Positions 9,330-26,907 of a stretch of DNA of 26,907 bases are shown here, piece by piece. This DNA is from a virus (taxonomy: Duplodnaviria > Heunggongvirae > Uroviricota > Caudoviricetes): IMG/VR virus record IMGVR_UViG_2778261676_000004. The stretch is one strand, 5' to 3'. Both the position numbers and the translations under genes were made by a program. The notes below the pieces were generated by a model. That model was not told the DNA's origin and did no database searches. It saw nothing but the letters and a program-made list of their open reading frames with translations. Position 1 is the stretch's first letter, and each line of letters starts with the position of its first letter.

Positions 9330-9530
9330 CGAGATTAAAGTGCATTAGTTCAGATGCAAATTGACATTTTGTGGCACAGGGTAGAGCTAGCGTGGTTGTC
9401 CGCTTTGTGCCAGGAGCGGACGTCTAGTTCGCTGAACCACAAAAAGTCGTTTCTAGTTATATTACTGGCTCATTAGTATCTTTATGCGATAATATTTCAT
9501 ACAACCAAAATTATGATGAAGGGAGTTCAA

Positions 9531-11265: not shown

Positions 11266-12519
11266 ATGTCAAAAAATCTCCCGGTTTTATTAAGCTCGCC
11301 ATCAACAACTAATTTTCCTGCAACAGTTAATACTGAAATAGAATTCCTTTCGCAAGCTAGAAAGTTGTTAGATTCTGGCTTCCCTGATCATGCTCTTTTA
11401 GATATATGGAATGCATCCATTCATAATCTTAGGCGGCGAATTGAGGCTTATGGTTTAGACTTATTCCTTTCCGCAATAAAGGATGATAGTGGTCGTAAAA
11501 AATATGATAAAGATGGTGAAACAATAAACGAGAGATGGTCAGGTGTAGATGATTTAGTGCTAATAAGTGGAGCCACCAAATTAGGGGTTCTGCATAAGAA
11601 AGCTGGAAAATCATTAGAAATGATCAATTGGATGAGAAACCATGCCTCTCCAGCCCATGCAAGTGATAGTAAAGTAGAGTCTGAGGATGTGTTTGCTTTG
11701 GCTCTTATGCTCCAGAAGAATTTATTCGAATCTGATATGCCAGACCCTGGACATTCGCCATCTGGATTATTTGAACCCATAAAAAAATCTGAACTATCAA
11801 TTGAGAGCATAGACTTACTTAAAGATCAAATAAGAGCATTTAAGCAAGCTGATATAAGAATAACATTTGGATTTTTATTGGATTTAATAACTAAGGGGGA
11901 AAATCCTGCTTATGTTAATGCTAGCAAGTTGTTTGAACAAGCATGGGAAAGATCTAATGATGACCTTAAAAAAACAGCGGGGGAAAGATATCACTCATTT
12001 ATGCTGGAGCCCGAATCGGATACAAGTGAGGATAAAGGAGCAAAAATAAGAATTTTAGAGACTTTAGTAAAAGTTAATGGTGTGAAATTTATACCTGATG
12101 CTGCTAGGGCAAGTTTATACAGACATGCGGTTAAACAGCTAGCTAAAGCTAAGGATACATCTTACGGCTGGAATGATGAAGAAAGAGCAGCCAAGGCACT
12201 TATACAATTTGGACCTCATGTTCCATCTATTGCTTTTGAAGATGTATATCAAGAAATACTTACTGTTTGGGTGGGGAATTACTGGGGAAGATCTGATGCA
12301 CATTTAGTACTTCAACCATTTTTAGATGTGTTAAATAGTAATCAATTGATGGCTCTCTCACGGTTGTTCGTGGAGAATGAAAGAGCAAATTCAGAACTGG
12401 TGTCATCAAGGCCCAAAAGAAGAGCAATAGAATTACTTGAGATAATAAAAAATAATCTAACAATTCAAGCAAGCATTGATGAAATTGATAGGATCATTTC
12501 TGAAATTGATAAAATGTAA
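11266..12519 (+). CDS. Hypothetical protein, cargo gene B (no family recognised; possible HEPN-like R-x6-H motif)
   Basis: 417 aa; ATG 11266 with AGGA upstream; AT-rich; motif WMRNHASPAH (nt 11635-11658) fits the HEPN R-x(4-6)-H pattern, but this is a weak single-motif match. Confidence 0.85.
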   Translation: MSKNLPVLLSSPSTTNFPATVNTEIEFLSQARKLLDSGFPDHALLDIWNASIHNLRRRIEAYGLDLFLSAIKDDSGRKKYDKDGETINERWSGVDDLVLISGATKLGVLHKKAGKSLEMINWMRNHASPAHASDSKVESEDVFALALMLQKNLFESDMPDPGHSPSGLFEPIKKSELSIESIDLLKDQIRAFKQADIRITFGFLLDLITKGENPAYVNASKLFEQAWERSNDDLKKTAGERYHSFMLEPESDTSEDKGAKIRILETLVKVNGVKFIPDAARASLYRHAVKQLAKAKDTSYGWNDEERAAKALIQFGPHVPSIAFEDVYQEILTVWVGNYWGRSDAHLVLQPFLDVLNSNQLMALSRLFVENERANSELVSSRPKRRAIELLEIIKNNLTIQASIDEIDRIISEIDKM

Positions 12520-13152
12520 TTTATTTGCAATTAAGCCATGCTTTTTAGGTGGCTTATTTTTTTTGAATCTACTACTTATATTGATATTAGCAATGTAATT
12601 GCTAAAGTATTCCTAGCCCACTATTCATCTAAATATGGTTGTCGAAAGGCCCGCTTCTCGCTCAAAGCGGACTAGAAGGTTAGCTTGCGTCGGACTTGGC
12701 GTATTTAAAGAAGTGCTGGTGGTGACTGGTTGTTGTGTTCCATTTCTACAGAACAAAATCACAGAAACTATACCCAATAGTTGTATCTCATCAATGATGA
12801 GACAGCCTCATATTTATCAGGACTGGTGTACGTCCAATACAGGAGGTTGTCGTGCTGGTTCTCAAATGTGCGCTGGCTATTGCAGCTGTAATGGCAATTT
12901 ATTGTCTTGCTGTTGTTCTTATGGATCGCCTTTCTGATTGATTTTATATTGGCGAGGTAACGGGAGTTAAGTAGAATGGCTGCGGGTGCTTGAGGCTATC
13001 TGTCTCAGGCATGAACACCAAAGGCAGATAGAGAAAAGCCCCAGTTAACATTACGCGTCCTGCAAGACGCTTAACATTAATCTGAGGCTCAATCTATGAA
13101 CGGCAAATCTAGGTTAGCCTCTTACGTGCCGAAAGGCAAGGAGAAGCAGGCT

Positions 13153-13308
13153 ATGAAGCAGCAAAAGGCGATGTTAATCGCCCTGATCGTCATCTGTTTA
13201 ACCGTCATAGTGACGGCACTGGTAACGAGGAAAGACCTCTGCGAGGTACGAATCCGAACCGGCCAGACGGAGGTTGCTGTCTTCGTGGACTACGAATCTG
13301 AGAAGTAA
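13153..13308 (+). CDS. Hok/Gef-family membrane toxin (type I toxin-antitoxin)
   Basis: 51 aa MKQQKAMLIALIVICLTVIVTALVTRKDLCEVRIRTGQTEVAVFVDYESEK, very close to my recollection of Gef/HokC; RBS AAGGAGAAG; in-frame upstream extension from 13096; 9-bp stem-loop GGCGGGAGA/TCTCCCGCC at 13318-13339 and a T8 run at 13391-13398 downstream. Confidence 0.8.
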   Translation: MKQQKAMLIALIVICLTVIVTALVTRKDLCEVRIRTGQTEVAVFVDYESEK

Positions 13309-13534
13309 GAGTGACCAGGCGGGAGAGTAATCTCCCGCCACCTCTGATGTGTCGGCATCCTCAACGCACCCGCGCTTAACCCTCTTGGCGTTTTTTTTGC
13401 TTTCAGATAATAAATTTACCAAAATGGTTTACAAAATCATTTTTTATGGTAATTTATTAGTCATGAAGTCTTCATCACAGGTTGTGCTTCGAAAATAGGC
13501 AGCCTGTTACTTATAGCGAATCGAGGAATTAACT

Positions 13535-13894
13535 ATGGCACTCACTGAATTCGGTAAGGCCGTTAGAAAAGCGAGGATAGATACCGACTGCACATTGCTT
13601 ACGATGGCCCAAGAACTGGGAGTAACTTCAGCTTTTCTGAGCGGTTTAGAAACAGGCAGTAAGAAAATCCCCAAAAAATGGGTAAAAGAGATTCAGGCTT
13701 TTTTCCTGAAAAGAGGTTATGAGATTAATAATCTTCAGGAATTGGCTGATGTATCTAATCAGTTTGTTTCCCTTGATGGATTGTCGCAAAATCAGCAAAT
13801 GTTGGTTGCTGGTTTTGCTAAATCCCCATTAACACCAGAGCAGTTAAAGCGAATAGCAGAGTTGATGAAAAGTATTAATCATGTTGAGGGATGA
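13535..13894 (+). CDS. HTH XRE-family transcriptional regulator
   Basis: 119 aa; N-terminal HTH-like TLLTMAQELGVTSAFLSGLETG; ATG with GAGGA RBS; stop immediately before the metallopeptidase gene. Confidence 0.8.
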   Translation: MALTEFGKAVRKARIDTDCTLLTMAQELGVTSAFLSGLETGSKKIPKKWVKEIQAFFLKRGYEINNLQELADVSNQFVSLDGLSQNQQMLVAGFAKSPLTPEQLKRIAELMKSINHVEG

Positions 13895-13897
13895 TCG

Positions 13898-14380
13898 TTG
13901 GAACAATCAGCTTACACATTACGTGGAAATCGTGTTGCACCAATGAGTATTGTTGATATAACAACTCGCGCTGTTAACTATAGCGCGATCTTCGACCTTA
14001 AAACGTTGAAAAGAAAAAAGCGGTTAGACCATGCATTTGAGTTGTTGAGTGAATATGGGATAACGCTCAATATCGTTGAGGATCGTGCGTGGACTAAAGC
14101 TACATATGATTTGACATCTGGGCATTACGATCCAATTACACTTACAATTAGTGTGCCGAATCATACATTTGAGTTGGCATGTAAAGGTGATAGAGAAGCA
14201 TTATTTGTGCTCTTTCATGAAATCGGACATTTGGTGTTGGGGCATAGAGCGTTATTTCACAGTTCCAATAAACCACCTTCGCAAATTGAAGATGCTGAAT
14301 GGCAAGCAGATTTGTTTGCTGAGGTGGTTTTGCGCGAATTAGGATTTTATATGGATCAACTATCATTTGACTTTTTATAA
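13898..14380 (+). CDS. ImmA/IrrE-family zinc metallopeptidase (HEXXH)
   Basis: 160 aa; HEIGHLVLGH contains the HEXXH zinc-binding motif; apparent TTG start 4 nt after the upstream stop, alternative ATG at 13943. Confidence 0.8.
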   Translation: MEQSAYTLRGNRVAPMSIVDITTRAVNYSAIFDLKTLKRKKRLDHAFELLSEYGITLNIVEDRAWTKATYDLTSGHYDPITLTISVPNHTFELACKGDREALFVLFHEIGHLVLGHRALFHSSNKPPSQIEDAEWQADLFAEVVLRELGFYMDQLSFDFL

Positions 14381-14403
14381 AAAAGCCCTGCTGTAACAGG
14401 GCT
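14376..14403 (-). terminator. Hairpin with a T-run on the minus strand (terminator for a leftward transcript, or bidirectional)
   Basis: AGCCCTG / CAGGGCT stem with loop CTGTAA; the A-run on plus (14370-14383) is a T-run on the minus strand. Confidence 0.4.
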
Positions 14404-14543
14404 TAGGATGGAAAGTCCGATAACTTTCCAGTGCAGATGGAGAACCCCACCGCCACACTTGGATTTGACAGATGCAAGTTTAGCGGTTCTCCCAACAAAT
14501 CGCAACCTGTATGGGGATACAGGTATGCAGGGACTTGCTTGTT

Positions 14544-14684
14544 ATGGCAATGAAAATCTGTAAGGAATGCGGAAAACCGTGCGAAATTATTTTTCGTTAT
14601 TCCGTTTGTATCAATGGAGTTATGCGATATGCGAGGAAGGGGCACCCTTTCCCGATTCCTGTTTGTGGTTGCTCCCGAACGTAG
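14544..14684 (+). CDS. Candidate small Cys-rich protein (46 aa)
   Basis: Hand-read ORF MAMKICKECGKPCEIIFRYSVCINGVMRYARKGHPFPIPVCGCSRT; C-x2-C ... C-x-C pattern suggests a zinc ribbon; no strong RBS; lies between two terminators. Confidence 0.25.
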   Translation: MAMKICKECGKPCEIIFRYSVCINGVMRYARKGHPFPIPVCGCSRT

Positions 14685-14705
14685 AGTTGCATAATGATCT
14701 AATCT

Positions 14706-14733
14706 AAACCCGCTTCGGCGGGTTTTTTGTTTT
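14706..14733 (+). terminator. Rho-independent terminator with TTCG tetraloop
   Basis: AAACCCGC TTCG GCGGGTTT followed by TTTTGTTTT. Confidence 0.75.
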
Positions 14734-14803
14734 ACGTATTCTGGTTTACAATCCACAGGCCAGCCTGAACAACTGGCACCTGCTGCGCCAGCAGAGACAA
14801 CCG

Positions 14804-15082
14804 ATGGCGCACGATACCAAATTACACAATTCTAATGATTCTGCTGTCTTTGCCAGCAGGTGCGGACGGCGTTTTCACGCATTCAAATCAGACTGGTTCC
14901 AGCATCCTCCATGCACTGAAGAGCAGGCTGAATGGATAATTCAGTGTTACCGCAGGCGTGGATACGAGGTTAAGAAAGCTCTTAGTCTCGACTATCGTCA
15001 CTGGATAATCTCAGTCAGACTCCCTTACTCCGAACGCCCACCGCGTCCGTCCCGCACATTCCAGCAACGGATCTGGAGGTAA
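14804..15082 (+). CDS. Hypothetical nin-region protein
   Basis: 92-aa ORF; stop at 15080-15082 directly before the GTG start of the next gene; weak RBS. Confidence 0.55.
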   Translation: MAHDTKLHNSNDSAVFASRCGRRFHAFKSDWFQHPPCTEEQAEWIIQCYRRRGYEVKKALSLDYRHWIISVRLPYSERPPRPSRTFQQRIWR

Positions 15083-15083
15083 C

Positions 15084-16133
15084 GTGCGGGTATTAGTGAC
15101 TCCTGAAATTGCTCACCGTCTGGGGATTGTACTTTTCAGGCCCGGTCCTGATGCGATGCCTTTGTTTATGCAGGGGCGTGTGCTGGTGGAGCCTGAACCG
15201 AAAAGCATGCGCAATCTGCCGCCCGGTGTCGTTCCTGCCGTTCGCCAGCCGCTGGCGGAAGATAAATCATTACTGCCATTTTTCAGCGATGAGCGGGTGA
15301 TTCGTGCTGCTGGTGGCACTGGTGCACTGTCTGACTGGCTGTTACGCCACGTTAAATCCTGCCAGTGGCCTCATGGAGACTATCACCATAGTGAAACCGT
15401 CATACATCGTTACGGTACCGGCGCAATGGTGTTGTGCTGGCACTGTGACAACCAGCTGCGTGACCAGACCTCCGAATCACTCGGGCAGCTTGCTCAACAA
15501 AATCTGACAGCCTGGATGATTGACGTCATACGTCACGCAATAAGCGGTACACAGGAGCGGGAATTATCGCTGGCTGAATTATCCTGGTGGGCGGTCTGTA
15601 ATCAGGTAGCGGACGCACTACCGGAGGTAGTATTACGTCGTTCTCTGGGGTTACGTGCGGAAAAAATCCGCTCTGTGTACCGCGAGAGCGACATCGTACC
15701 GGGAGAGCAGACAGCCACCAGCATACTGAAGCAGCGCACAAAAAATTTTGCGTCGTTGCCTCGCGCCCACCAGCAACCGAACCCACCACAGGAAAAGACG
15801 GTTGTAAGTATCACAGTTGATCCGGAGTCACCGGAATCTTTCATGAAGCGGCCTAAACGTCGTCGCTGGGTGAATGAGAAATACACGCGCTGGGTAAAAA
15901 CACAGCCGTGTACGTGTTGTGGTAAGCCAGCAGACGATCCCCATCACCTGATTGGTCACGGTCAGGGCGGAATGGGGACAAAAGCCCACGATATTTTTAC
16001 GTTGCCGCTGTGCCGGGAACATCACAACGAACTTCATGCAGATCCGCAGGCGTTCGAAGAAAAGCATGGTTCTCAGGTTGATTTAATTTTTCGTTTTCTT
16101 GATCACGCCTTTGCAACAGGCGTACTCGGATAA
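15084..16133 (+). CDS. DUF968-like prophage protein with C-terminal HNH-like Cys/His motif
   Basis: 349 aa; GTG start with GGAGG RBS; C-terminal CTCCGKPADDPHHLIGHGQGGMGTKAHDIFTLPLCREHHNELH resembles an HNH/zinc-finger nuclease signature; overall like YdfU-type proteins of E. coli prophages (recalled). Confidence 0.75.
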   Translation: MRVLVTPEIAHRLGIVLFRPGPDAMPLFMQGRVLVEPEPKSMRNLPPGVVPAVRQPLAEDKSLLPFFSDERVIRAAGGTGALSDWLLRHVKSCQWPHGDYHHSETVIHRYGTGAMVLCWHCDNQLRDQTSESLGQLAQQNLTAWMIDVIRHAISGTQERELSLAELSWWAVCNQVADALPEVVLRRSLGLRAEKIRSVYRESDIVPGEQTATSILKQRTKNFASLPRAHQQPNPPQEKTVVSITVDPESPESFMKRPKRRRWVNEKYTRWVKTQPCTCCGKPADDPHHLIGHGQGGMGTKAHDIFTLPLCREHHNELHADPQAFEEKHGSQVDLIFRFLDHAFATGVLG

Positions 16134-16145
16134 AAGAGGTTACTG

Positions 16146-16517
16146 ATGGGGATAGAATTTGTTTTGCCTTACCCGCCAACGGTGAACACCTACTGGCGAC
16201 GTCGTGGCAGCACATATTTTGTATCAAAAGCCGGTGAGCGTTATCGCCGTGATGTGGCGCTTATTGTTCGCCAGCAGCGACTGAAATTAAACCTGTCCGG
16301 AAGGCTGGCAATAAAAATTATTGCAGAGCCACCGGATAAGCGCCGCCGCGACCTGGACAATATCCTGAAGGCACCACTGGATGCGCTGACGCATGCCGGA
16401 CTACTTATAGACGACGAGCAGTTTGATGAAATCAATATTGTGCGCGGACTGCCTGTTCCTGGTGGGCGGTTGGGCGTGAAGATTTACGAAATTACAGGTG
16501 ATAACGATGGTGCGTGA
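16146..16517 (+). CDS. rusA: RusA-family Holliday junction resolvase
   Basis: 123 aa; [21 protein letters not shown] ... [26 protein letters not shown] is the RusA signature as I recall it; RBS AAGAGG. Confidence 0.9.
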
Positions 16518-16893
16518 TATTCAGCAGGTTATGGAGCGGTGGGGAGCATGGGCTGCGAACAATCACGAAGATGTGTCATGGGCGTCAATCGCTGCTGGTT
16601 TTAAAGGATTAATCCCGCCGAAAGTGAAATCACGCCCTCAGTGTTCTGATGATGATGCAATGATAATTTGTGGCTGTATGGCCCGGTTGAACAAGAAAAA
16701 TCAGGATTTGCACGATTTGTTGGTGGATTATTACGTAGGTGGAATGACTTTTATGGGGTTGGCACGAAAGCATGGGTGTTCGGATACCTGTATTGGCAAG
16801 CGCCTGCAGAAAGCGGAAGGGGTTATTGATGGCATGTTGATGATGCTTGATATCCGACTGGAGATGGACAGATACGTAGAACGAATCATGTAG
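16507..16893 (+). CDS. Late-gene antiterminator Q (QuuD-like)
   Basis: [36 protein letters not shown]...[14 protein letters not shown] closely matches my recollection of E. coli DLP12 QuuD; overlaps the rusA 3' end by 11 nt. Confidence 0.85.
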
Positions 16894-16897
16894 GAGC

Positions 16898-16927
16898 TTG
16901 ACCAGACACATTGTCCGGGGCTATATT
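16898..16927 (+). promoter_or_regulatory. Candidate late promoter (PR'-like) just downstream of Q
   Basis: TTGACC (16898-16903), 18-bp spacer, TATATT (16922-16927); followed by a structured leader and a hairpin terminator. Confidence 0.35.
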
Positions 16928-16987
16928 CCTCACGCGCCAGCAAAATCTGGCGTCGGGATTGGCGTCCCGGATGAAAAAGGCGACAAC

Positions 16988-17010
16988 AGACGCGCCAGCG
17001 TCTTTTTTAT
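16988..17010 (+). terminator. Leader terminator (tR'-like) downstream of the candidate late promoter
   Basis: AGACGC GCCA GCGTCT followed by TTTTTTAT. Confidence 0.55.
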
Positions 17011-17166
17011 TGTCGTTTGCACTGTCACATCTCAATGGTGGGCTGTGTGGGGGCGGAGCGATCCGCGCCGGTTCCTTTTTCCCGGTTACGCCAACCCTGC
17101 ACAGTTCACCACCATACTGATTGGCGTCAGCAGTGGTGATGATTCACATAGAAAAAGGATCATCCT

Positions 17167-17655
17167 ATGGCTATTCAAATCTCAGTTGAAACTCTTTCCC
17201 CGATCACCCATAACCAAATCCCTGTCATTACTACCGAGCTTTTGGCACAACTTTATGGCACCGAAACTAATAACATCAAAGTGAACTATACACGCAATGC
17301 CGAGCGTTTTGTTTGTGGGAAACACTACTTCAAATTGGAAGGGGCTGAGTTGCGGGAATTTAAGAACAAGGTTACTCAAAGTAACTTAGTTGCACCGCGT
17401 ACAAAGCACCTCATCCTCTGGACAGAACGCGGAGCAGCCCGTCACGCCAAAATGCTGGAAACCGATCAGGCGTGGGAAGTGTTCGAAAAACTGGAAGACT
17501 GTTATTTCAGCCAAAAACAACCACCAGCAGCACAAAACACCCCAACCCAAAATGATGGATGCGCATTACTGATCCACTTCGATAAACACGGTCAGGTCGA
17601 CTTCACGGAAAAACTACCCGCCGATGCGATGGTATGCACTCTGGAACGGTTTTAA
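17167..17655 (+). CDS. ORF6N-domain protein (antirepressor-like cargo)
   Basis: 162 aa; VITTELLAQLYGTETNNIKVNYTRNAERFVCGKHYFKLEGAELREFK fits the ORF6N pattern as recalled. Confidence 0.75.
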   Translation: MAIQISVETLSPITHNQIPVITTELLAQLYGTETNNIKVNYTRNAERFVCGKHYFKLEGAELREFKNKVTQSNLVAPRTKHLILWTERGAARHAKMLETDQAWEVFEKLEDCYFSQKQPPAAQNTPTQNDGCALLIHFDKHGQVDFTEKLPADAMVCTLERF

Positions 17656-17730
17656 AAATTTTCCCCGAACGCTTTACGATCGTAAAAAGTTGAATATCCT
17701 GTTAAGAGTGGTTACTACGCCAAACAGCTT

Positions 17731-17757
17731 AAACCCGCCACTGAGCGGGTTTTTTAT
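17731..17757 (+). terminator. Rho-independent terminator
   Basis: AAACCCGC CACTGA GCGGGTTT followed by TTTTTAT. Confidence 0.75.
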
Positions 17758-17877
17758 GCCTGAAAAACGGTACAGGACGTTAAACGCGCTGGTGGTTGCG
17801 AATACTGGTCTTTCGGCTTGTATTTTTGTAAATCGATATATACTTATCTTGTGACCAGTAATGTCAGGGCAATTGAT

Positions 17878-18621
17878 ATGAATGAAGCTTGTTCTGTTGT
17901 TTTTGTTCATTCCCCGTTTGTTGTGCTCTTTGAAGGAAAAGAGCTCTCTCTGGAAAGTGGTAGTGCACTTCTTGTCAGGGGGGGAGCTGGATCGTTATTG
18001 CCCTTTTCGGAATGTTTTCGGCGAATAAGTCTCAGTGAATCGACAATTATCCGTTACCTGTTGTGTGGAGACGAAAAACAGGATGTAGTTTTAGTCCGGC
18101 AAATACCACGATATCTTTGCGTGAGTTTTCCCAAGGCAGAATTGATGGGCATCCTGATTGATTATCTTTGTGAGGAAAAGATTCATACGGACAATTTAGC
18201 GGAAATGCTTTCCTTTTCGTGTCTGGCGTTTTTCTCATCAGAGAAAATGTTTTCGTCGTTTCTGACCGCGTGTATTGGCAATATTAGTGACAGGCTTAGT
18301 GCATTGTTTCGTACGGACATTGCAGCAAACTGGACTCTGAGAGATGTGTCTTCGCGGTTATGTATCAGTGAAAGTTTGTTAAAAAAAAGACTGAAAGAAG
18401 AAGGCACCTGTTTCAGTGAGTTGTTGCTTACAGAGAGAATGAGAATGGCAGCAATGCTGTTGAATCAATCTCGTTGCGCCATCAACAGAATCGCTGCTCA
18501 GTGTGGCTATAATTTTACATCTTATTTTATCAGCGTATTCAGGAGTTATTTTGGTGTTACACCGGCAGGTTACAGGATGGCTGCATTCAATGAGATGAGT
18601 TTAAGTGTTACTCAAGAATAA
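17878..18621 (+). CDS. AraC-family transcriptional regulator (prophage cargo)
   Basis: C-terminal AraC-type HTH WTLRDVSSRLCISESLLKKRLKEEG ... CGYNFTSYFISVFRSYFGVTPAGYR; AT-rich gene; start assigned to the first ATG (17878), the track ORF opens at an upstream TTG. Confidence 0.75.
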   Translation: MNEACSVVFVHSPFVVLFEGKELSLESGSALLVRGGAGSLLPFSECFRRISLSESTIIRYLLCGDEKQDVVLVRQIPRYLCVSFPKAELMGILIDYLCEEKIHTDNLAEMLSFSCLAFFSSEKMFSSFLTACIGNISDRLSALFRTDIAANWTLRDVSSRLCISESLLKKRLKEEGTCFSELLLTERMRMAAMLLNQSRCAINRIAAQCGYNFTSYFISVFRSYFGVTPAGYRMAAFNEMSLSVTQE

Positions 18622-18762
18622 TTGAATTTTGCACTCATTGAAAACAGGCTCGCTGCGGCGGGCCTTTTTTATATCCGCGCCACGTCCGGCGCACATCACA
18701 TCAGATAACACCACACAAAAGGTATCTGCGGGTGCCTTTGACGGGGTGTTGTTTTTTTACGG

Positions 18763-18790
18763 GCCGACAGTGGCCCTTTTTTATTTACAG
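18763..18790 (+). terminator. Hairpin with T-run upstream of the lysis genes
   Basis: GGGCC GACAGT GGCCC followed by TTTTTTATTT. Confidence 0.5.
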
Positions 18791-18800
18791 GAGAAAAAGT

Positions 18801-19193
18801 ATGTCTGAACCCTTATCCGGTTCCGGCACGGCTGCGGCGCTCGGCGGGGCGACGGTATTCGGGCTGTTTACCGGAACGGATTTCGGGATTGTGTTTGGCG
18901 CATTTGCCGGGGCGCTGTTTGTGGCCACAATGCCGCAGGCACTATCTGCCTGGCGTGTGGCAGCGCATTTTCTGGTGTCGTTTATCGTTGGCGTGCTGGG
19001 TGCGCATGTGCTGTCAGCCTGGATTGCATCAAAAACAGGTTATGACGGTACATCGGCGGATGCACTGTGTGCGGTGCTGGTGGCGGTGGTGTCGGTGAAG
19101 ATTCTCTCGTTCATCCACCAGCAGGATATTGCATCGCTGGTGTCTGGCCTGTTCTCCCGCCTGCGGGGTGGAGGAGGCGGCAATGTTAAGTAA
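18801..19193 (+). CDS. Holin-like multi-pass membrane protein
   Basis: ATG 18801 with AGGAG RBS; several Gly/Ala-rich hydrophobic segments; first gene of a three-gene cassette ending in an endolysin. Confidence 0.65.
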   Translation: MSEPLSGSGTAAALGGATVFGLFTGTDFGIVFGAFAGALFVATMPQALSAWRVAAHFLVSFIVGVLGAHVLSAWIASKTGYDGTSADALCAVLVAVVSVKILSFIHQQDIASLVSGLFSRLRGGGGGNVK

Positions 19194-19461
19194 CCTTCCC
19201 GGATTGCTGAATGTGGCGTTATGCACGGTTATCGTGCTGACGCTCTTTTTTTATCGTCGTCGTGATTCCAGACATAAACCGCTGATGTCATGGCTGGCCT
19301 GGTTGCTGATGCTGCTGTATGCCTTTGCGCCCCTCAGCTATCTGTGTGGTCGCCCGTTAGCAACGGGCTGGCTGGAAGTGTTTTTTAACCTGCTGTTCTG
19401 CGTGCTGGTGGTTCGTGCTCGTGGGAACGTTTCAAAAATCTTTGTATTACGAAGGCGCTGA
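19183..19461 (+). CDS. Second lysis-cassette membrane protein (holin/antiholin-like)
   Basis: ATG 19183 with GGAGG RBS, overlapping the end of the previous gene; hydrophobic segments LLNVALCTVIVLTLFFY and LAWLLMLLYAFAPL; basic C-terminus. Confidence 0.55.
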   Translation: MLSNLPGLLNVALCTVIVLTLFFYRRRDSRHKPLMSWLAWLLMLLYAFAPLSYLCGRPLATGWLEVFFNLLFCVLVVRARGNVSKIFVLRRR

Positions 19462-19462
19462 G

Positions 19463-20008
19463 ATGAAGTCGAAAGATGAAATTTTTGATGCTGTTCTTGG
19501 CAAAGAGGGCGGCTACGTCAACCACCCTGATGATAAAGGTGGTCCGACTAAATGGGGCATTACTGGAAAAGTTGCCCGTGCACACGGTTATCAGGGGGAT
19601 ATTCGTGACCTGACGCGTGGGCAGGCCCTCGAAATTCTTGAAGCGGACTACTGGTACGGGCCACGTTTTCACAAGGTTGCGAGCCTGTCTCCGGAGATCG
19701 CTGCTGAATTGTGTGATACCGGCGTAAACATGGGGCCGTCAGTGGCATCCAGAATGCTTCAGCGCTGGCTTAATGTATTTAACCAGAAAGGAGAGTTGTA
19801 TCCGGACATTGATGCAGATGGTTGTATCGGCCCACGTACCATTAATGCGTTACGCGCCTATTTGTCAAAACGTGGCAGGGATGGTGAGTTGGTGATTCTG
19901 ACAGCGCTAAACTGTACGCAGGGAGATCGCTACCTTGAACTGGCAGAAAAACGTGAGGCTAATGAATCGTTCGTGTATGGCTGGATGAAAGAGCGCGTGG
20001 TGGTGTAG
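19463..20008 (+). CDS. Endolysin, GH108-type lysozyme with C-terminal peptidoglycan-binding domain
   Basis: MKSKDEIFDAVLGKEGGYVNHPDDKGGPTKWGIT matches the GH108 N-terminal signature as recalled. Confidence 0.8.
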   Translation: MKSKDEIFDAVLGKEGGYVNHPDDKGGPTKWGITGKVARAHGYQGDIRDLTRGQALEILEADYWYGPRFHKVASLSPEIAAELCDTGVNMGPSVASRMLQRWLNVFNQKGELYPDIDADGCIGPRTINALRAYLSKRGRDGELVILTALNCTQGDRYLELAEKREANESFVYGWMKERVVV

Positions 20009-20325
20009 TTGGCATTAATGAGGCCAGTAAATCCAACCTGCGGTTAGCTTGTTATTAGACTTACCGAACAAGAAAAACGACTGGAGAAAGAGTTCGGTTT
20101 TTATACCAAACAAAGAGGAGAATATGAATCAGTGAGTACAGAGAAAAATCCTCGGCAGATCGTATAAATCTTCTTTTAAAGCCGTCCGTTATGAAAGGAA
20201 TAGAAAAGAAAGTAACTGCACGTCTTTATGTGACACGGTCTGCTTTTGCTATTTTTCTTTTGGAGGTTGTTATTTGCGCATCAAGTGCAGATAGAGTTGC
20301 CCATCGAGATGGGCAACTTATGATA

Positions 20326-20619
20326 TTATTGTGAGCAATATACCCGAGCTTCCAGCGGAGTATAAATGCCGAAAGTGATAAAACCGAGCAATCCATTTAC
20401 GAATGTTTGCTGGGTTTCAGTCTTAACAACTTTTTCTGCGCCACCACAAATTTTGGCTGCATCGACAGTTTTCTTCTGACCAATTCCAGAAACGAAGAAA
20501 TGATGAGTGATGGTTTCCTTCGGTGTTACTGTTGTCGGTTGGTTTTCAACAGTAAACGTCTGTTGAGCACATCCAGAGATAAGCAGGGCCAGCGTGAAAG
20601 TGAGTAGCGTTTTTTTCAT
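20326..20619 (-). CDS. bor: Bor/Iss-family outer-membrane lipoprotein
   Basis: 97 aa; MKKTLLTFTLALLISGCAQQTFTV ... ARVYCSQ nearly identical to my recollection of lambda Bor; lipobox LISGC; palindrome GTTGCCCATCGAGATGGGCAAC (20297-20318) just 3' of the stop. Confidence 0.9.
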   Translation of the reverse strand: MKKTLLTFTLALLISGCAQQTFTVENQPTTVTPKETITHHFFVSGIGQKKTVDAAKICGGAEKVVKTETQQTFVNGLLGFITFGIYTPLEARVYCSQ

Positions 20620-20843
20620 AGTGTTATTCCCGTTGTGTTTTTAAGGTTGTTGAATCGTATTTGTAGAAATTTAAACAAAACCTAAACAATGAGTTGAAAT
20701 CTCATATTTTTAATGTTTATTAAAGTATGCCAGATGTGCTGTATTTTCATTGTATTCCCGGATTAACTATGTCCTCAGTACCGACTGGTAACTCCTGTGT
20801 GGGAGTGCCGGATAGTGAGGGGGATTAAACCGGGCGATATGGT

Positions 20844-21254
20844 TTAGCGTGGAAAAAATTGTGTCGTGTTCTGAATGCTTTCGGTAAACAATAATGAGTT
20901 GTCAAAGGTATAGTAATACCTTTTGTGTTCATGGACATTTGTAACCCATCGGAAAACTCCAGCCTTAGCCAGATTTTCCCTGTATTCATGAAATGTGATT
21001 TCTCTTGATTTCAACTTATGAGAGTAAGTTTCTATAAGTCGCGTGTCTCTGCGAAATTTAACATTCACAACCTCCTCAAGTCCTTTTATTAACACTGCGT
21101 TATCATTTTTCAATACAACGTGAATATTACCTGTGGCTAAATAGTAAATGTAATGTGAGACATTGTGACGTTTTAGTTCAGAGTAAAATCGGTCACAGTT
21201 TAAATCTTTCCGCACTTGATCAAATATTTCTTTAAAAAGGGCAACCTGAGCCAT
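20844..21254 (-). CDS. YbcV-like (DUF1398-type) prophage protein
   Basis: 136 aa, the size I recall for DLP12 YbcV; lies between bor and the former packaging region as in lambdoid genomes. Confidence 0.65.
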
Positions 21255-21369
21255 CAGTATAACCTTGTATATGATATGGGGTGCGTAGTCTGCATGAGAG
21301 CTTTTAATACTGCAATCTGGTCAGATGTCTTTATCCTGTGTGGATGATAATTGATCTTACCCAGCAATA

Positions 21370-23256
21370 GTGGACACGCGGCTATGCGATGCCCGCCGGG
21401 CGTTACATGAACTGATGATCGGACGTGCTGTGGTTTCCGTCAGCAAGGACGGGCGTCAGGTTCAGTATTCGCGGGCGACAATTGGTGAACTGCGTCAGTA
21501 TATTGAAGAGCTGGAAAGTGCGCTGGGTGTATGGGGGCTGAAGCTGCCGACGCTGCGCCAGCGACTGTTCCGCTGCGTGAGTATCCGTGAGAACGACGAC
21601 GGCACGTATGCCATCACCGCCGTGCAGCATGTGCCGGAAAAAGAGGCCATCGTGGATAACGGGGCGCACTTTGACGGCGAACAGAGTGGCACGGTGAATG
21701 GTGTCACGCCGCCAGCGGTGCAGCACCTGACCGCAGAAGTCACTGCAGACAGCGGGGAATATCAGGTGCTGGCGCGATGGGACACACCGAAGGTGGTGAA
21801 GGGCGTGAGCTTCCTGCTCCGTCTGACCGTAACAGCGGACGACGGCAGTGAGCGGCTGGTCAGCACGGCCCGGACGACGGAAACCACATACCGCTTCACG
21901 CAACTGGCGCTGGGGAACTACAGGCTGACAGTCCGGGCGGTAAATGCGTGGGGGCAGCAGGGCGATCCGGCGTCGGTATCGTTCCGGATTGCCGCACCGG
22001 CAGCACCGTCGAGGATTGAGCTGACGCCGGGCTATTTTCAGATAACCGCCACGCCGCATCTTGCCGTTTATGACCCGACGGTACAGTTTGAGTTCTGGTT
22101 CTCGGAAAAGCAGATTGCGGATATCAGACAGGTTGAAACCAGCGCGCGTTATCTTGGTACGGCGCTGTACTGGATAGCCGCCAGTATCAATATCAAACCG
22201 GGCCATGATTATTACTTTTATATCCGCAGTGTGAACACCGTTGGCAAATCGGCATTCGTGGAGGCCGTCGGTCGGGCGAGCGATGATGCGGAAGGTTACC
22301 TGGATTTTTTCAAAGGCAAGATAACCGAATCCCATCTCGGCAAGGAGCTGCTGGAAAAAGTCGAGCTGACGGAGGATAACGCCAGCAGACTGGAGGAGTT
22401 TTCGAAAGAGTGGAAGGACGCCAACGATAAGTGGAATGCCATGTGGGCTGTCAAAATTGAGCAGACCAAAGACGGCAAACATTATGTCGCGGGTATTGGC
22501 CTCAGCATGGAGGACACGGAGGAAGGCAAACTGAGCCAGTTTCTGGTTGCCGCCAATCGTATCGCGTTTATTGACCCGGCAAACGGGAATGAAACGCCGA
22601 TGTTTGTGGCGCAGGGCAACCAGATATTCATGAACGACGTGTTCCTGAAGCGCCTGACGGCCCCCACCATTACCAGCGGCGGCAATCCTCCGGCCTTTTC
22701 CCTGACACCGGACGGAAAGCTGACCGCTAAAAATGCGGATATCAGTGGCAGTGTGAATGCGAACTCCGGGACGCTCAGTAATGTGACGATAGCTGAAAAC
22801 TGTACGATAAACGGTACGCTGAGGGCGGAAAAAATCGTCGGGGACATTGTAAAGGCGGCGAGCGCGGCTTTTCCGCGCCAGCGTGAAAGCAGTGTGGACT
22901 GGCCGTCAGGTACCCGTACTGTCACCGTGACCGATGACCATCCTTTTGATCGCCAGATAGTGGTGCTTCCGCTGACGTTTCGCGGAAGTAAGCGTACTGT
23001 CAGCGGCAGGACAACGTATTCGATGTGTTATCTGAAAGTACTGATGAACGGTGCGGTGATTTATGATGGCGCGGCGAACGAGGCGGTACAGGTGTTCTCC
23101 CGTATTGTTGACATGCCAGCGGGTCGGGGAAACGTGATCCTGACGTTCACGCTTACGTCCACACGGCATTCGGCAGATATTCCGCCGGATACGTTTGCCA
23201 GCGATGTGCAGGTTATGGTGATTAAGAAACAGGCGCTGGGCATCAGCGTGGTCTGA
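21370..23256 (+). pseudogene. Deletion remnant: gpW-like N-terminus fused in frame to the C-terminal part of tail tip protein J
   Basis: First ~55 residues ([42 protein letters not shown]) resemble lambda gpW; the remainder matches the lambda J C-terminus ending ...[10 protein letters not shown] as recalled; ORF opens at GTG right after an in-frame TAG; no terminase, portal, capsid or tail genes anywhere in the window. Confidence 0.65.
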
Positions 23257-23317
23257 GTGTGTTACAGAGGTTCGTCCGGGAACGGGCGTTTTATTATAAA
23301 ACAGTGAGAGGTGAACG

Positions 23318-23937
23318 ATGCGTAATGTGTGTATTGCCGTTGCTGTCTTTGCCGCACTTGCGGTGACAGTCACTCCGGCCCGTGCGGAAGGTGGACATGG
23401 TACGTTTACGGTGGGCTATTTTCAGGTGAAACCGGGTACATTGCCGTCGTTGTCGGGCGGGGATACCGGTGTGAGTCATCTGAAAGGGATTAACGTGAAG
23501 TACCGTTATGAGCTGACGGACAGTGTGGGGTGATGGCTTCCCTGGGGTTCGCCGCGTCGAAAAAGAGCAGCACAGTGATGACCGGGGAGGATACGTTTCA
23601 CTATGAGAGCCTGCGTGGACGTTATGTGAGCGTGATGGCCGGACCGGTTTTACAAATCAGTAAGCAGGTCAGTGCGTACGCCATGGCCGGAGTGGCTCAC
23701 AGTCGGTGGTCCGGCAGTACAAGGGATTACCGTAAGACGGAAATCACTCCCGGGTATATGAAAGAGACGACCACCGCCAGGGACGAAAGTGCAATGCGGC
23801 ATACCTCAGTGGCGTGGAGTGCAGGTATACAGATTAATCCGGCAGCGTCCGTCGTTGTTGATATTGCTTATGAAGGCTCCGGCAGTGGCGACTGGCGTAC
23901 TGACGGATTCATCGTTGGGGTCGGTTATAAATTCTGA
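23318..23937 (+). pseudogene. lom: lom (Ail/Lom outer-membrane protein), frameshifted
   Basis: Track ORFs 23318-23533 and 23530-23937 together match lambda Lom as recalled; they are in different frames, broken at the G4 run 23527-23530 (AGTGTGGGGTGATGG); one extra G would restore a single ORF. Confidence 0.75.
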
Positions 23938-23964
23938 TTAGCCAGGTAACACAGTGTTATGACA

Positions 23965-23990
23965 GCCCGCCGGAACCGGTGGGCTTTTTT
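23965..23990 (+). terminator. Rho-independent terminator after lom
   Basis: GCCCGCCGG AACC GGTGGGC followed by TTTTTTG. Confidence 0.6.
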
Positions 23991-24001
23991 GTGGGGTGAA
24001 T

Positions 24002-26326
24002 ATGGCAGTAAAAATTTCAGGAGTCCTGAAAGACGGCACAGGAAAACCGGTACAGAACTGCACCATTCAGCTGAAAGCCAGACGTAACAGCACCACGGTG
24101 GTGGTGAACACGGTGGGCTCAGAGAATCCGGATGAAGCCGGGCGTTACAGCATGGATGTGGAGTACGGTCAGTACAGTGTCATCCTGCAGGTTGACGGTT
24201 TTCCACCATCGCACGCCGGGACCATCACCGTGTATGAAGATTCACAACCGGGGACGCTGAATGATTTTCTCTGTGCCATGACGGAGGATGATGCCCGGCC
24301 GGAGGTGCTGCGTCGTCTTGAACTGATGGTGGAAGAGGTGGCGCGTAACGCGTCCGTGGTGGCACAGAGTACGGCAGACGCGAAGAAATCAGCCGGCGAT
24401 GCCAGTGCATCAGCTGCTCAGGTCGCGGCCCTTGTGACTGATGCAACTGACTCAGCACGCGCCGCCAGCACGTCCGCCGGACAGGCTGCATCGTCAGCTC
24501 AGGAAGCGTCCTCCGGCGCAGAAGCGGCATCAGCAAAGGCCACTGAAGCGGAAAAAAGTGCCGCAGCCGCAGAGTCCTCAAAAAACGCGGCGGCCACCAG
24601 TGCCGGTGCGGCGAAAACGTCAGAAACGAATGCTGCAGCGTCACAACAATCAGCCGCCACGTCTGCCTCCACCGCGGCCACGAAAGCGTCAGAGGCCGCC
24701 ACTTCAGCACGAGATGCGGTGGCCTCAAAAGAGGCAGCAAAATCATCAGAAACGAACGCATCATCAAGTGCCGGTCGTGCAGCTTCCTCGGCAACGGCGG
24801 CAGAAAATTCTGCCAGGGCGGCAAACACGTCCGAGACGAATGCCAGGTCATCTGAAACAGCAGCGGAACGGAGCGCCTCTGCCGCGGCAGACGCAAAAAC
24901 AGCGGCGGCGGGGAGTGCGTCAACGGCATCCACGAAGGCGACAGAGGCTGCGGGAAGTGCGGTATCAGCATCGCAGAGCAAAAGTGCGGCAGAAGCGGCG
25001 GCAATACGTGCAGAAAATTCGGCAAAACGTGCAGAAGATATAGCTTCAGCTGTCGCGCTTGAGGATGCGGACACAACGAGAAAGGGGATAGTGCAGCTCA
25101 GCAGTGCAACCAACAGCACGTCTGAAACGCTTGCTGCAACGCCAAAGGCGGTTAAGGTGGTAATGGATGAAACGAACAGAAAAGCCCCACTGGACAGTCC
25201 GGCACTGACCGGAACGCCAACAGCACCAACCGCGCTCAGGGGAACAAACAATACCCAGATTGCGAACACCGCTTTTGTACTGGCCGCGATTGCAGATGTT
25301 ATCGACGCGTCACCTGACGCACTGAATACGCTGAATGAACTGGCCGCAGCGCTCGGGAATGATCCAGATTTTGCTACCACCATGACTAACGCGCTTGCGG
25401 GTAAACAACCGAAGAATGCGACACTGACGGCGCTGGCAGGGCTTTCCACGGCGAAAAATAAATTACCGTATTTTGCGGAAAATGATGCCGCCAGCCTGAC
25501 TGAACTGACTCAGGTTGGCAGGGATATTCTGGCAAAAAATTCCGTTGCAGATGTTCTTGAATACCTTGGGGCCGGAGAGAATTCGGCCTTTCCGGCAGGT
25601 GCGCCGATCCCGTGGCCATCAGATATCGTTCCGTCTGGCTACGTCCTGATGCAGGGGCAGGCGTTTGACAAATCAGCCTACCCAAAACTTGCTGTCGCGT
25701 ATCCATCGGGTGTGCTTCCTGATATGCGAGGCTGGACAATCAAGGGGAAACCCGCCAGCGGTCGTGCTGTATTGTCTCAGGAACAGGATGGAATTAAGTC
25801 GCACACCCACAGTGCCAGTGCATCCGGTACGGATTTGGGGACGAAAACCACATCGTCGTTTGATTACGGGACGAAAACAACAGGCAGTTTCGATTACGGC
25901 ACCAAATCGACGAATAACACGGGGGCTCATGCTCACAGTCTGAGCGGTTCAACAGGGGCCGCGGGTGCTCATGCCCACACAAGTGGTTTAAGGATGAACA
26001 GTTCTGGCTGGAGTCAGTATGGAACAGCAACCATTACAGGAAGTTTATCCACAGTTAAAGGAACCAACACACAGGGTATTGCTTATTTATCGAAAACGGA
26101 CAGTCAGGGCAGCCACAGTCACTCATTGTCCGGTACAGTCGTGAGTGCCGGTGCACATGCGCATACAGTTGGTATTGGTGCGCACCAGCATCCGGTTGTT
26201 ATCGGTGCTCATGCCCATTCTTTCAGTATTGGTTCACACGGACACACCATCACCGTTAACGCTGCGGGTAACGCGGAAAACACCGTCAAAAACATTGCAT
26301 TTAACTATATTGTGAGGCTTGCATAA
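24002..26326 (+). CDS. stf: Side tail fibre protein Stf
   Basis: N-terminus [26 protein letters not shown] matches lambda Stf as recalled; long Ala/Ser-rich repeat region and Gly/His-rich C-terminal repeats (GAHAH, SHSHS). Confidence 0.9.
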
Positions 26327-26907
26327 TGGCATTCAGAATGAGTGAACAACCACGGACCATAAAAATTTATAATCTGCTGGCCGGAACTAATGAATTTATT
26401 GGTGAAGGTGACGCATATATTCCGCCTCATACCGGTCTGCCTGCAAACAGTACCGATATTGCACCGCCAGATATTCCGGCTGGCTTTGTGGCTGTTTTCA
26501 ACAGTGATGAGGCATCGTGGCATCTCGTTGAAGACCATCGGGGTAAAACCGTCTATGACGTGGCTTCCGGCGACGCGTTATTTATTTCTGAACTCGGTCC
26601 GTTACCGGAAAATTTTACCTGGTTATCGCCGGGAGGGGAATATCAGAAGTGGAACGGCACAGCCTGGGTGAAGGATACGGAAGCAGAAAAACTGTTCCGG
26701 ATCCGGGAGGCGGAAGAAACAAAAAACAACCTGATGCAGGTAGCCAGTGAGCATATTGCGCCGCTTCAGGATGCTGCAGATCTGGAAATTGCAACGGAGG
26801 AAGAAACCTCGTTGCTGGAAGCCTGGAAGAAGTATCGGGTATTGCTGAACCGTGTTGATACATCAACTGCACCTGATATTGAGTGGCCGACTTCACCTGC
26901 AGAGTAA
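26326..26907 (+). CDS. tfa: Tail fibre assembly protein Tfa
   Basis: [54 protein letters not shown] matches lambda Tfa as recalled; start overlaps the stf stop (ATAATGG); stop at 26905-26907. Confidence 0.9.

Follow-up and report, generated by a model that had tools for sequence, protein, structure and literature searches.

The window, that is, the whole 26,907-nucleotide stretch of DNA analyzed here, holds a lambdoid prophage whose source contig continues into chromosomal DNA on both flanks, with potC/potD to the left of the prophage and potB/potA to its right. The prophage carries int, xis, and genes for an S24 repressor, Q, holins, and an endolysin, as is characteristic of a defective (cryptic) lambdoid prophage. 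Next to the last intact gene before the scar, which encodes a DUF1398 (YbcV-like) protein, the ORF list of the window gives an uninterrupted frame of 628 aa with a GTG start (positions 21370-23256, plus strand). An in-frame W::J fusion had been predicted directly after the YbcV/DUF1398 gene, and this ORF is indeed such a fusion; it is, however, a chimera of three parts, comprising the end of an IS3, a piece of the gpW gene, and half of J, of which the original prediction had overlooked the first, a 33-bp left-end remnant that separates the YbcV region from W. The features of this region and of its neighbors are collected in Table 1. Downstream of the chimera, lom is frameshifted, and its 71-aa product is widespread, occurring also in prophages whose J and tail genes are intact.

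Table 1. Features at the W::J scar and in adjoining parts of the prophage (window positions).
Feature	Position	Strand	Basis
Lysis cassette: two holins and GH108 endolysin	18801..20008	+	100% protein identity to ARS-C101; Pfam families
DUF1398 (YbcV-like) gene, last intact gene before the scar	20844..21254	-	136 aa, 100% identical to ARS-C101 protein; DUF1398 annotation in relatives
AAT, left copy of the 3-bp target duplication of the ancestral IS3 insertion	21349..21351	.	ARS-C101 comparison
IS3 left terminal repeat remnant, first 33 nt, TGATCTTACCCAGCAATAGTGGACACGCGGCTA	21352..21384	+	Identical to same-site IS3 left end in ARS-C101, EC11, and sibling L026
Chimeric ORF	21370..23256	+	Codons: IS3-derived 1-4, W 8-57, J 558-1132
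gpW head-tail joining gene, internal fragment (W nt 21-172; codons 8-57 of 69)	21381..21532	+	100% DNA identity
Junction 1, 4-bp microhomology GCTA (IS3 nt 30-33 = W nt 21-24)	21381..21384	.	Three-way base alignment; 4,338 bp missing relative to ARS-C101
Junction 2, 4-bp microhomology GTAT (W nt 169-172 = J nt 1672-1675)	21529..21532	.	Three-way base alignment; 15,068 bp missing relative to ARS-C101
Tail-tip gene J, 3' half (codons 558-1132: two Ig-like domains, tail-tip fiber, receptor-binding domain)	21529..23256	+	DNA identity and Pfam
lom, split by a 1-bp deletion after 23526	23318..23937	+	Alignment with ARS-C101 and lambda
stf side tail fiber gene, intact	24002..26326	+	774 aa, 99.7% identical to ARS-C101 protein
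tfa tail fiber assembly gene, intact, last prophage gene before potB	26326..26907	+	193 aa, 99% identity

All three pieces of the chimera are 99.2-100% identical to contiguous parental sequences, far beyond chance. The IS3 remnant supplies codons 1-4, together with the GTG start at 21370 and the in-frame TGA at which the frame opens, and homology to IS-free relatives stops at ~21353. Whereas the IS3 of ARS-C101 is complete (1258 bp) with AAT on either side, the window retains the left AAT only; the right end of the element and the right AAT copy are gone, and its transposase orfAB gave no tblastn match in the window (E ≤ 1e-3). The W fragment is identical in DNA sequence to W of ARS-C101, EC11, and at least 10 other genomes. 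ORF residues 5-54 match Pfam PF02831, gpW (E = 5.6e-17; 61.7 bits, cutoff 22.5; profile positions 5-55 of 66), and BLASTP of the W part against lambda W gave 44% identity over 43 aa (E = 4e-12), in agreement with the prediction of a gpW-like segment lacking its first codons. Seven of the 69 codons are deleted at the start and a further 12 at the end, such that the fragment does not represent a complete protein of ~68-69 aa, and the two genes between which W usually lies, those for the large terminase and the portal, occur in relatives but not in the window. The J part, previously described as the C-terminal third, amounts to half of the protein (575 of 1132 aa): ORF residues 54/55-628 correspond to lambda J residues 558/559-1132 with ~97% identity, and at the DNA level this part is 99.8% identical to ARS-C101 J and 99.6% to lambda. 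Pfam matches above cutoff were obtained for each of Ig_J, Ig_J_second, Phage_Tail_Tip, and Ig_GpJ_C; the N-terminal hub domains listed for full-length J of relatives (FNIII-A_GpJ and Phage-tail_3) are missing from the fusion, codons 1-557 having been deleted. Across J-lom-stf-tfa as a whole (lambda 17176-22535), lambda and the window share 99.6% DNA identity.

The E. coli ARS-C101 prophage, located between potC and potB, was used as the intact reference. The window maps collinearly onto it with exactly two internal gaps, which confirms the prediction of large-scale deletion and corrects "at least one" to two missing stretches. Deletion 1 (4,338 bp) extends from 33 bp inside the left end of IS3 to W nt 20, removing the rest of IS3 (1,225 bp) and 3,113 bp of neighboring DNA with cos, nu1, A, and the start of W. 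Deletion 2 (15,068 bp) extends from W nt 173 to J nt 1671, removing the portal, protease, capsid, head-completion, tail tube, tape measure, and tail-tip assembly genes, through I. Between them survives a W-only island of 148 bp (152 bp with the shared ends). One copy of a 4-bp direct repeat is left at each join, GCTA at the first and GTAT at the second, and the parental arrangement is seen in ARS-C101 and EC11, as expected for microhomology-mediated deletion at both junctions; the search for microhomology that had been proposed was thus successful. Of the two predicted positions, ~21530 proved exact (21529-21532), and ~21365 pointed to the correct region but not to a single site, as the IS3 end begins at 21352 and the IS3/W junction lies at 21381-21384.

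As originally predicted, the window has no terminase, portal, capsid, tail-tube, or tape-measure gene: W and J aside, the 19 morphogenetic proteins of the ARS-C101 prophage all gave zero tblastn matches (E ≤ 1e-3). Nor are the structural genes located elsewhere in the same prophage, pot genes flanking it on both sides. The packaging site cos is gone as well: the ARS-C101 cos (homologous to lambda nt 1-88) falls within deletion 1, and nothing like it was detected in the window. Cargo, lysis, and tail-fiber genes are retained as had been stated, except that lom is not intact, its frameshift predating the deletion. We infer that the element can neither form particles nor be packaged any longer, although integrase, immunity, replication, Q, lysis, bor, stf, and tfa genes are still in place; since cos is deleted, a helper phage would be unable to package it either, whereas a phage satellite (helper-dependent element) keeps a cos or pac site recognized by the terminase of its helper.

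The locus is thus very probably a recent deletion scar in a lambda-like prophage inserted between potC and potB, seen in one strain so far. Its ancestor resembled the ARS-C101 prophage, with IS3 already inserted just past the DUF1398 gene and with a full late operon, including lysis genes, bor, DUF1398, cos, nu1, A, W, and portal, continuing to J, lom, stf, and tfa; the IS3-to-W and W-to-J stretches were lost afterwards, each via a 4-bp direct repeat. No observation speaks against this account. That the junctions are instead assembly artefacts, with repeats misjoined and the real genome carrying a complete IS3 and the full morphogenetic region, is scarcely credible. It is true that only one draft assembly is known to contain the scar and that many E. 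coli genomes have several copies of IS3, W, and J, but k-mer assemblers need overlaps of tens of bases rather than 4 bp, and short-read assemblies normally break at IS copies instead of retaining 33 bp of one. Moreover, the two 4-bp joins lie just 148 bp apart inside one 330-kb contig, and independent assemblies, multi-megabase contigs included, contain six comparable junctions at the same J site.

For the deletion scar, the joins are proposed to have formed by RecA-independent illegitimate recombination, either microhomology-guided end joining or template switching, and one complex event appears at least as likely as two separate deletions because merely the 148-bp island survives between them. 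The scar resembles the products of short-homology illegitimate recombination (slippage or microhomology-mediated end joining) in its 4-bp direct repeats, of which one copy is kept, and in having no recombinase site. Unlike simple slippage, it spans long distances (4.3 and 15 kb), and its J endpoint recurs with unrelated partners, contrary to what ordinary random use of microhomology predicts. A link between the left break and an abortive IS3 excision is possible, by analogy with the IEE-promoted deletions at IS3-family elements described for IS629, whose classes include partial IS loss with large adjacent loss (PMC9330008). In the window, too, an IS3-family element at the left junction was partly lost together with adjacent DNA, but the break did not fall at the IS end; it lies 33 bp within the element and used microhomology with W. 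The right break would have fallen at a spot in J that repeatedly breaks in other prophages.

The scar is on record in one assembly only and was not found in 5,426 complete E. coli genomes, GTDB representatives, JGI metagenomes, or the phage collection. Look-up of the exact 628-aa and 613-aa versions of the fusion product returned no match, scans of the GTDB representatives for junctions 1 and 2 detected neither, a scan of JGI metagenomes for junction 1 yielded no copy, and megablast of positions 21300-21620 against phage records found neither junction. A search for a complete genome sharing window positions 6000-14900 returned only mosaics (coverage ≤53%) and no one-deletion intermediate. The deletion event looks recent on sequence comparison, because the right arm differs from that of its nearest relatives, in which J is intact, by 3 mismatches in 5,379 bp, and because most of the proteins shared with ARS-C101 are 100% identical (lom aside, the range is 96-100%, with all but two at 99-100%). 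The J part itself has one private substitution over 1.7 kb. A sibling (L026) shares the early-region mosaic of the window and carries DUF1398 followed by a full IS3. The relative order of events, as read from these comparisons, is that the IS3 insertion and the lom frameshift came earlier and the deletion later; post-deletion decay was considered for the lom frameshift and dropped, many prophages with intact tails sharing it.

Expression signals for the chimera were assessed at its candidate starts. No Shine-Dalgarno sequence was found at any of them, the anti-Shine-Dalgarno duplex energies of the three being +0.6, -2.7, and -4.2 kcal/mol, compared to -9.3 kcal/mol for native W, and no promoter-like site was found within 21255-21369. 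The public gene call places the start at GTG 21430 (608 aa). Judging from these signals, the fusion is probably transcribed only within the Q-dependent late transcript, with little or no translation, although weak initiation may occur at GTG 21430 or ATG 21415. The open frame would be accidental: its GTG lies in the IS3 remnant without a ribosome-binding site, the translational coupling of W with gene A would have been lost, and an in-frame join has a one-in-three chance. Given that chance and the lack of a Shine-Dalgarno sequence, the in-frame join gives no evidence of function, and for the same reasons the chimera is most likely a recent, neutral pseudogene. The equivalent scars of E3 and Ecol_517, described below, are annotated by the NCBI pipeline as paired partial pseudogenes.

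A domesticated gene would offer another explanation for 628 open codons in which all four C-terminal J domains are complete, for a J part that has acquired so little private change, and for the intact stf and tfa downstream. Its product would be a soluble receptor-binding half of J (Ig-like domains, tip fiber, and LamB-binding domain) with a short W-derived N-terminus, acting, for example, in receptor masking against lambdoid superinfection or as an adhesin-like protein with stf and tfa. This is very unlikely. The low divergence of the J part reflects recency, the whole right arm being only 3 nt per 5.4 kb away from intact-J relatives, and an in-frame join is to be expected in one case out of three. 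Furthermore, the fusion is without a Shine-Dalgarno sequence or promoter, begins within an IS remnant, has no signal peptide, and is missing the J hub domains required for any assembly. With the scar in one assembly only, neither spread nor selection is visible, and the equivalent scars of E3 and L039 are out of frame.

Decay of prophages by such deletions is of an ordinary kind, and scars similar to this one (Nu1'::'J and holin'::'J) are common. The Rac, DLP12, and Qin elements of K-12 are, like the window prophage, integrated lambdoid elements in which internal deletions cost head and tail genes, while regulatory, lysis, bor/ybcV-type, and side-tail-fiber genes were kept; for instance, Rac keeps ynaA-lomR-stfR-tfaR behind a gutted late region. 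DLP12 has lysis and terminase genes around cos in common with lambda, and Qin and Rac have stf and tfa (PMC3945230). These three are old elements that have become fixed in the K-12 lineage and show heavy erosion (IS5 in lomR, trkG inserted), in contrast to the window prophage, which is recent, occurs in one assembly, and shares proteins at 96-100% identity with intact relatives. Rac ynaA was also considered as a remnant of J and rejected, as it has no detectable DNA similarity to J of the window.

The E3 (Nu1'::'J) and Ecol_517 (holin'::'J) scars have the same layout as that in the window: a fragment of an upstream late gene abuts the C-terminal part of J, tail-fiber genes follow, and the morphogenetic block is lost. 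The partner in E3 is the N-terminus of Nu1, at a site near appY/ompT, and in Ecol_517 it is the holin, at a site near ydfJ. The J breakpoint of E3 (nt 1691) lies 19 nt away from that of the window. Unlike the window, E3 has kept cos and its join is out of frame, and neither E3 nor Ecol_517 has an IS remnant or an intervening island.

The J breakpoint of the window, GTA^TGGGGG (J nt 1672-1678), is common to five other independent rearrangements in both orientations. In L038 and L039, it borders deletions by which the C-terminal part of J, lom, stf, and a portion of tfa were lost, the L039 scar being out of frame. This recurrence suggests a breakage hotspot. It is possible, if somewhat short of probable, that lambdoid J contains a sequence-specific fragile site at GTA^TGGGGG (nt 1672-1678, codons 558-560), perhaps with a second at nt 1462-1469. 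At such a site, DNA would break or replication would switch template repeatedly, truncating independent prophages in either direction, and the W::J scar would be one of its products. Polymerase might stall at the G run, where a GC-rich hairpin has its base, or a nuclease might target and cleave this conserved block of J. The site lies at the base of an imperfect hairpin, and deletion endpoints are classically found in such a setting; an unusually stable DNA hairpin was unsupported (z = -1.73; 12 of 200 shuffles fold equally well). No Chi site is known at the breakpoint, and cleavage from the Eco57I site CTGAAG that adjoins the G run would fall ~25 nt further downstream.

Other accounts of the cluster were tried and rejected. 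Ascertainment by the first query does not explain it, a control query with the site internal having returned the same cluster; the edge of a conserved block does not, conservation climbing at ~codon 550 and the partner genes being unrelated; and as regards an IS insertion hotspot at the site, no IS-derived tails were seen among the truncated proteins. A pattern scan of viral contigs, a collection with few decayed prophages, found no chimeras at the J site.

It is unlikely, though less so than domestication, that the deletion is a scar whose endpoint was shaped by selection, with the right arm (the J half, stf, and tfa) kept for the benefit of the host or as a reservoir of host-range modules for incoming lambdoid phages. 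Scars in which a phage gene fragment is joined to the J C-terminus and followed by tail-fiber genes do recur, lambda picks up stf/tfa-region DNA of Rac and Qin at ~2e-6 (PMC3945230), and a laboratory lambda has a 1,336-bp tract of J (nt 1545-2796) from its E. coli host (bioRxiv 10.1101/771998). However, the same J site also bounds the L038 and L039 deletions, which take away the C-terminal side of J together with lom, stf, and part of tfa, and the breakpoint is therefore not accounted for by a right arm being kept. In addition, a benefit for phages is not selection on the host.

As a deletion scar, the locus is a clean, textbook example in which both breakpoints, the parental arrangement, and the relative order of events can be read directly, and it illustrates the conversion, within one or two steps, of a functional prophage into a remnant that cannot be packaged. 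The importance of these remnants lies in their retained lysis genes and host-range modules, which infecting phages can capture (PMC3945230; bioRxiv 10.1101/771998). The finding that the J breakpoint is not private to this prophage is a more interesting lead than the scar alone: if the hotspot is real, it would go some way to account for the large number of E. coli prophage remnants that begin or end in the middle of J, and it would provide a defined sequence for studying illegitimate recombination.

The open reading frame (ORF) that follows the DUF1398/YbcV-like gene is a genuine in-frame W::J fusion, as the original prediction held, with gpW recognized in residues 5-54 (Pfam PF02831, E=5.6e-17, 61.7 bits against a cutoff of 22.5 bits, profile positions 5-55 of 66; BLASTP to lambda W, 44% identity across 43 residues, E=4e-12) and residues 54/55 to the end matching lambda J 558/559-1132 at ~97% identity. 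At junction 2 a single codon serves both as valine 57 of W and as valine 558 of J, so that the reading frame is kept; an in-frame join has a chance prior of 1/3 and so is no sign of a functional gene. The J portion, which includes the Ig_J, Ig_J_second, Phage_Tail_Tip, and receptor-binding Ig_GpJ_C domains, is the C-terminal half (575/1132 residues) rather than the predicted third. The W fragment does lie after the YbcV region, but a 33-nt IS3 end had been overlooked; it supplies the ORF's opening stop (TGA 21352), GTG start (21370), and codons 1-4, the start lying 116 nt from the start codon of the DUF1398/YbcV-like gene.

Coordinates of features in the window and of J breakpoints at other database loci
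Feature	Position	Strand	Description
Gene pair	9513-10652 and 11266-12519		379 and 417 aa; no Pfam or PADLOC match
HTH protein	13535-13894		119 aa
M78/U49-like peptidase	13898-14380		160 aa
DUF1398/YbcV-like gene	20844-21254	-	divergent from W::J ORF
IS3 left-end remnant	21352-21384		first 33 nt of IS3: TGATCTTACCCAGCAATAGTGGACACGCGGCTA
W::J ORF	21370-23256	+	628 aa, GTG start, uninterrupted
Junction 1	21381-21384		IS3 to W nt 21 via common GCTA
Junction 2	21529-21532		W nt 172 to J nt 1672 via common GTAT
lom	23318-23937		split, 1-bp deletion after 23526
stf	24002-26326		774 aa, intact
Collinear segment 1	14787-21384		L003 16296-22893, 99.2% identity
Collinear segment 2	21381-21532		L003 27232-27383, 100% identity; within W gene (27212-27421)
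Collinear segment 3	21529-26907		L003 42452-47831, 99.8% identity; 99.6% to lambda 17176-22535
Deletion 1			4,338 bp: IS3 nt 34-1258, 653-bp spacer with cos, nu1, A, W nt 1-20
Deletion 2			15,068 bp: W nt 173-210 through J nt 1-1671
J break, window			W::J; crossover in GTAT, J nt 1672-1675
J break, L040	L040 734		early-region sequence::J; crossover in GTAT
J break, L039	L039 4196		J::stf, out of frame; crossover in TAT
J break, L038	L038 4192		J::tfa; J ends at nt 1674
J break, L042	L042 169		holin::J; J starts at nt 1675, no microhomology
J break, L041	L041 351		internal J deletion; left edge nt 1678

The fused arrangement is absent from complete E. coli genomes, in many of which the three pieces occur separately. 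All three are found within a single intact prophage, that of ARS-C101 (NZ_CP132979.1; locus L003), located between potC and potB and ordered DUF2335, int, xis, exonuclease ... Q, holins, GH108 endolysin, bor, DUF1398, IS3, nu1, A, W, portal ... J, lom, stf, tfa; the window is collinear with it in three segments. IS3 occupies the identical site in ARS-C101, EC11, seven more complete genomes, and the draft sibling L026, and in ARS-C101 it is complete (1258 bp) with an AAT target duplication (window 21349-21384; L003 22861-24118). At least nine complete genomes carry IS3 just downstream of the DUF1398 gene, 8/9 of them from cattle or farm sources, and IS3 at this site marks one lineage of the prophage. 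Window 6088-14787 (immunity, replication, cargo) is a mosaic, covered to 53% at best by any complete E. coli genome and carried by draft siblings (L015-L019, L026).

Deletion 2 removed the portal, protease/scaffold, decoration, and major capsid genes, as well as FI, FII, Z, U, V, G, T, H, M, L, K, and I. In tblastn searches with each protein, no further copy of the deleted proteins or of the IS3 transposase was detected elsewhere in the window, in agreement with the predicted lack of terminase, portal, capsid, tail-tube, and tape-measure genes; sensitive blastn gave no match in the window to the cos region of the relative (L003 ~24583, homologous to lambda nt 1-88, inside the 653-bp spacer). 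Relocation of the structural genes within the element was considered. Contig NONG01000004.1 (GCA_002518955.1), 100% identical to the window, shows the element bordered by potC/potD (left) and potB/potA/pepT (right), with one prophage ORF outside the window (67 aa, adjoining potC). Since chromosomal pot genes lie on both sides, the window covers all other prophage genes and nothing was moved. The element would be unable to build particles, as predicted, and a helper phage would be unable to package it.

Judging from its sequence, the fusion ORF is probably not a functional gene. The fusion has lost the native W signals (GGAGG and the coupling with the end of gene A), and anti-Shine-Dalgarno duplex energies are +0.6 kcal/mol at GTG 21370, -2.7 at ATG 21415, and -4.2 at GTG 21430 (the start in the public gene call), compared with -9.3 for native W, -7.1 for lom, -6.0 for stf, and -5.6 for tfa. 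The stretch from the DUF1398 gene to the ORF has no promoter-like site, the count for this region not exceeding that of shuffled sequence, and the J hub domains, required for any tail assembly, are deleted. By analogy with lambda, the region would still be transcribed within the Q-dependent late transcript, together with stf and tfa.

The remaining genes in common with ARS-C101 are intact, most at 100% protein identity, including int, xis, exonuclease, dicB, DUF968, rusA, Q, an AraC-like gene, bor, and DUF1398, as well as the lysis and tail-fibre genes expected to be retained (both holins, endolysin, stf, and tfa). The lambda reference stf has a known 1-bp deletion at the position matching window 25185, splitting it into orf-401 and orf-314. 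Of the 379/417-aa gene pair, the 417-aa protein looks like mobile cargo: the collection lists it in 3,445 blocks and in varied settings, among them lambdoid prophages, islands beside integrase/WYL/SDR genes, and IS-flanked segments. The HTH protein and peptidase, with weak CapH/CapP-like PADLOC matches, are a regulator pair of a type often adjoining defence systems.

The 71-aa truncated lom product recurs in 252 collection blocks and, among the matches listed, mostly with full-length J and tail genes, indicating that the lom frameshift is older than the deletions and the pseudogene widespread. The IS3 insertion and lom frameshift are both common to relatives and hence earlier. Over 5,379 nt, the right arm has only 3 mismatches with its closest relatives, the fusion product is recorded in one assembly only, and neither junction was found in complete E. 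coli genomes, GTDB representatives, and phage records or, for junction 1, JGI metagenomes. Sequence comparison thus places the deletions after both earlier changes, as apparently recent events known to date from one sequenced strain.

The protein collection was queried with the junction-spanning N-terminus and, as a control with the site in the query interior, with J residues 500-640; both recovered several chimeras whose J portion starts or stops at codons 556-564. At the DNA level, six independent events break within 7 nt, at GTA^TGGGGG (J nt 1672-1678; window 21529-21540), and three more within 20 nt: the database proteins P0001 (Rz::J, ~nt 1666) and P0030 (Nu1::J, ~nt 1686), and strain E3 (nt 1691). 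Three loci have a second recurrent boundary in common, at nt 1462-1469 with crossover in GGTAT: the Ecol_517 holin::J (L036 7001), the L038 J island (3980), and one L041 internal deletion (142). Because both orientations occur, the pattern cannot be put down to selection for retention of the J C-terminus. Codons 558-559 account for 4 of the 19 true junctions in the control set (binomial p=1.6e-4 with the site fixed in advance by the window; p=0.006 in a 2-codon scan; not significant in a 10-codon scan, p=0.12). The breakpoint adjoins a G5 run and sits at the 5′ base of an imperfect hairpin, CAGCGT...ACGCTG (J nt 1668-1698); hairpin stability is not significantly above that of shuffled sequence (z=-1.73). 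The breakpoint may be an illegitimate-recombination hotspot; a true sequence-specific fragile site is possible, if not quite probable, and is rated a lead only, since the sample was a word-indexed set of short proteins and no census.

Many database J alleles are frameshifted at the G5 run (window 21533-21537, J codons 559-560; P0002, P0016, P0022, P0024, P0027, P0059, P0061, P0095, P0140), through genuine pseudogenisation or through sequencing errors in the homopolymer. The L041 J gene (1-1213, on a 2.2-kb contig) is an unusually moth-eaten remnant with four internal deletions (nt 1333 to 1469, 1678 to 1888, 2069 to 2179, and 2381 to 2713). P0045, from a 284-bp contig, runs from antisense J into sense J with a fold-back at the palindrome CGCTG-CGC-CAGCG (J nt ~1693-1705, window ~21550-21562), explained by an artefact of the library or by a true template switch at this small hairpin.

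Both joins in the window would have arisen by short-homology illegitimate recombination. A single complex event involving two template switches is at least as likely as two separate deletions, since two independent deletions would rarely leave just a 148-bp island in ~20 kb and no intermediate with one deletion only was found. The left break falls within an IS3-family element, and partial IS loss with loss of adjacent DNA is among the described outcomes of IEE-promoted excision (PMC9330008); the right break coincides with the recurrent J breakpoint.

The original interpretation is supported, with the corrections made here, and the scar is very ordinary as a kind, belonging to the well-known class of deletion scars in defective lambdoid prophages. 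In E3, a 34-codon Nu1 fragment is joined out of frame to a J C-terminal fragment followed by tail-fibre genes, and in Ecol_517 J begins at nt 1462 directly behind a holin fragment, with fragments of lom and tail-fibre genes after it; the NCBI pipeline annotates both as paired partial pseudogenes. Likewise, K-12 Rac retains ynaA-lomR-stfR-tfaR behind a gutted late region. Infecting lambda takes DNA from defective prophages (PMC3945230), and a laboratory lambda carries a host-derived J tract (nt 1545-2796; bioRxiv 10.1101/771998). The intrinsic novelty of the scar is low; the possible J breakage hotspot is a moderately interesting, testable lead.
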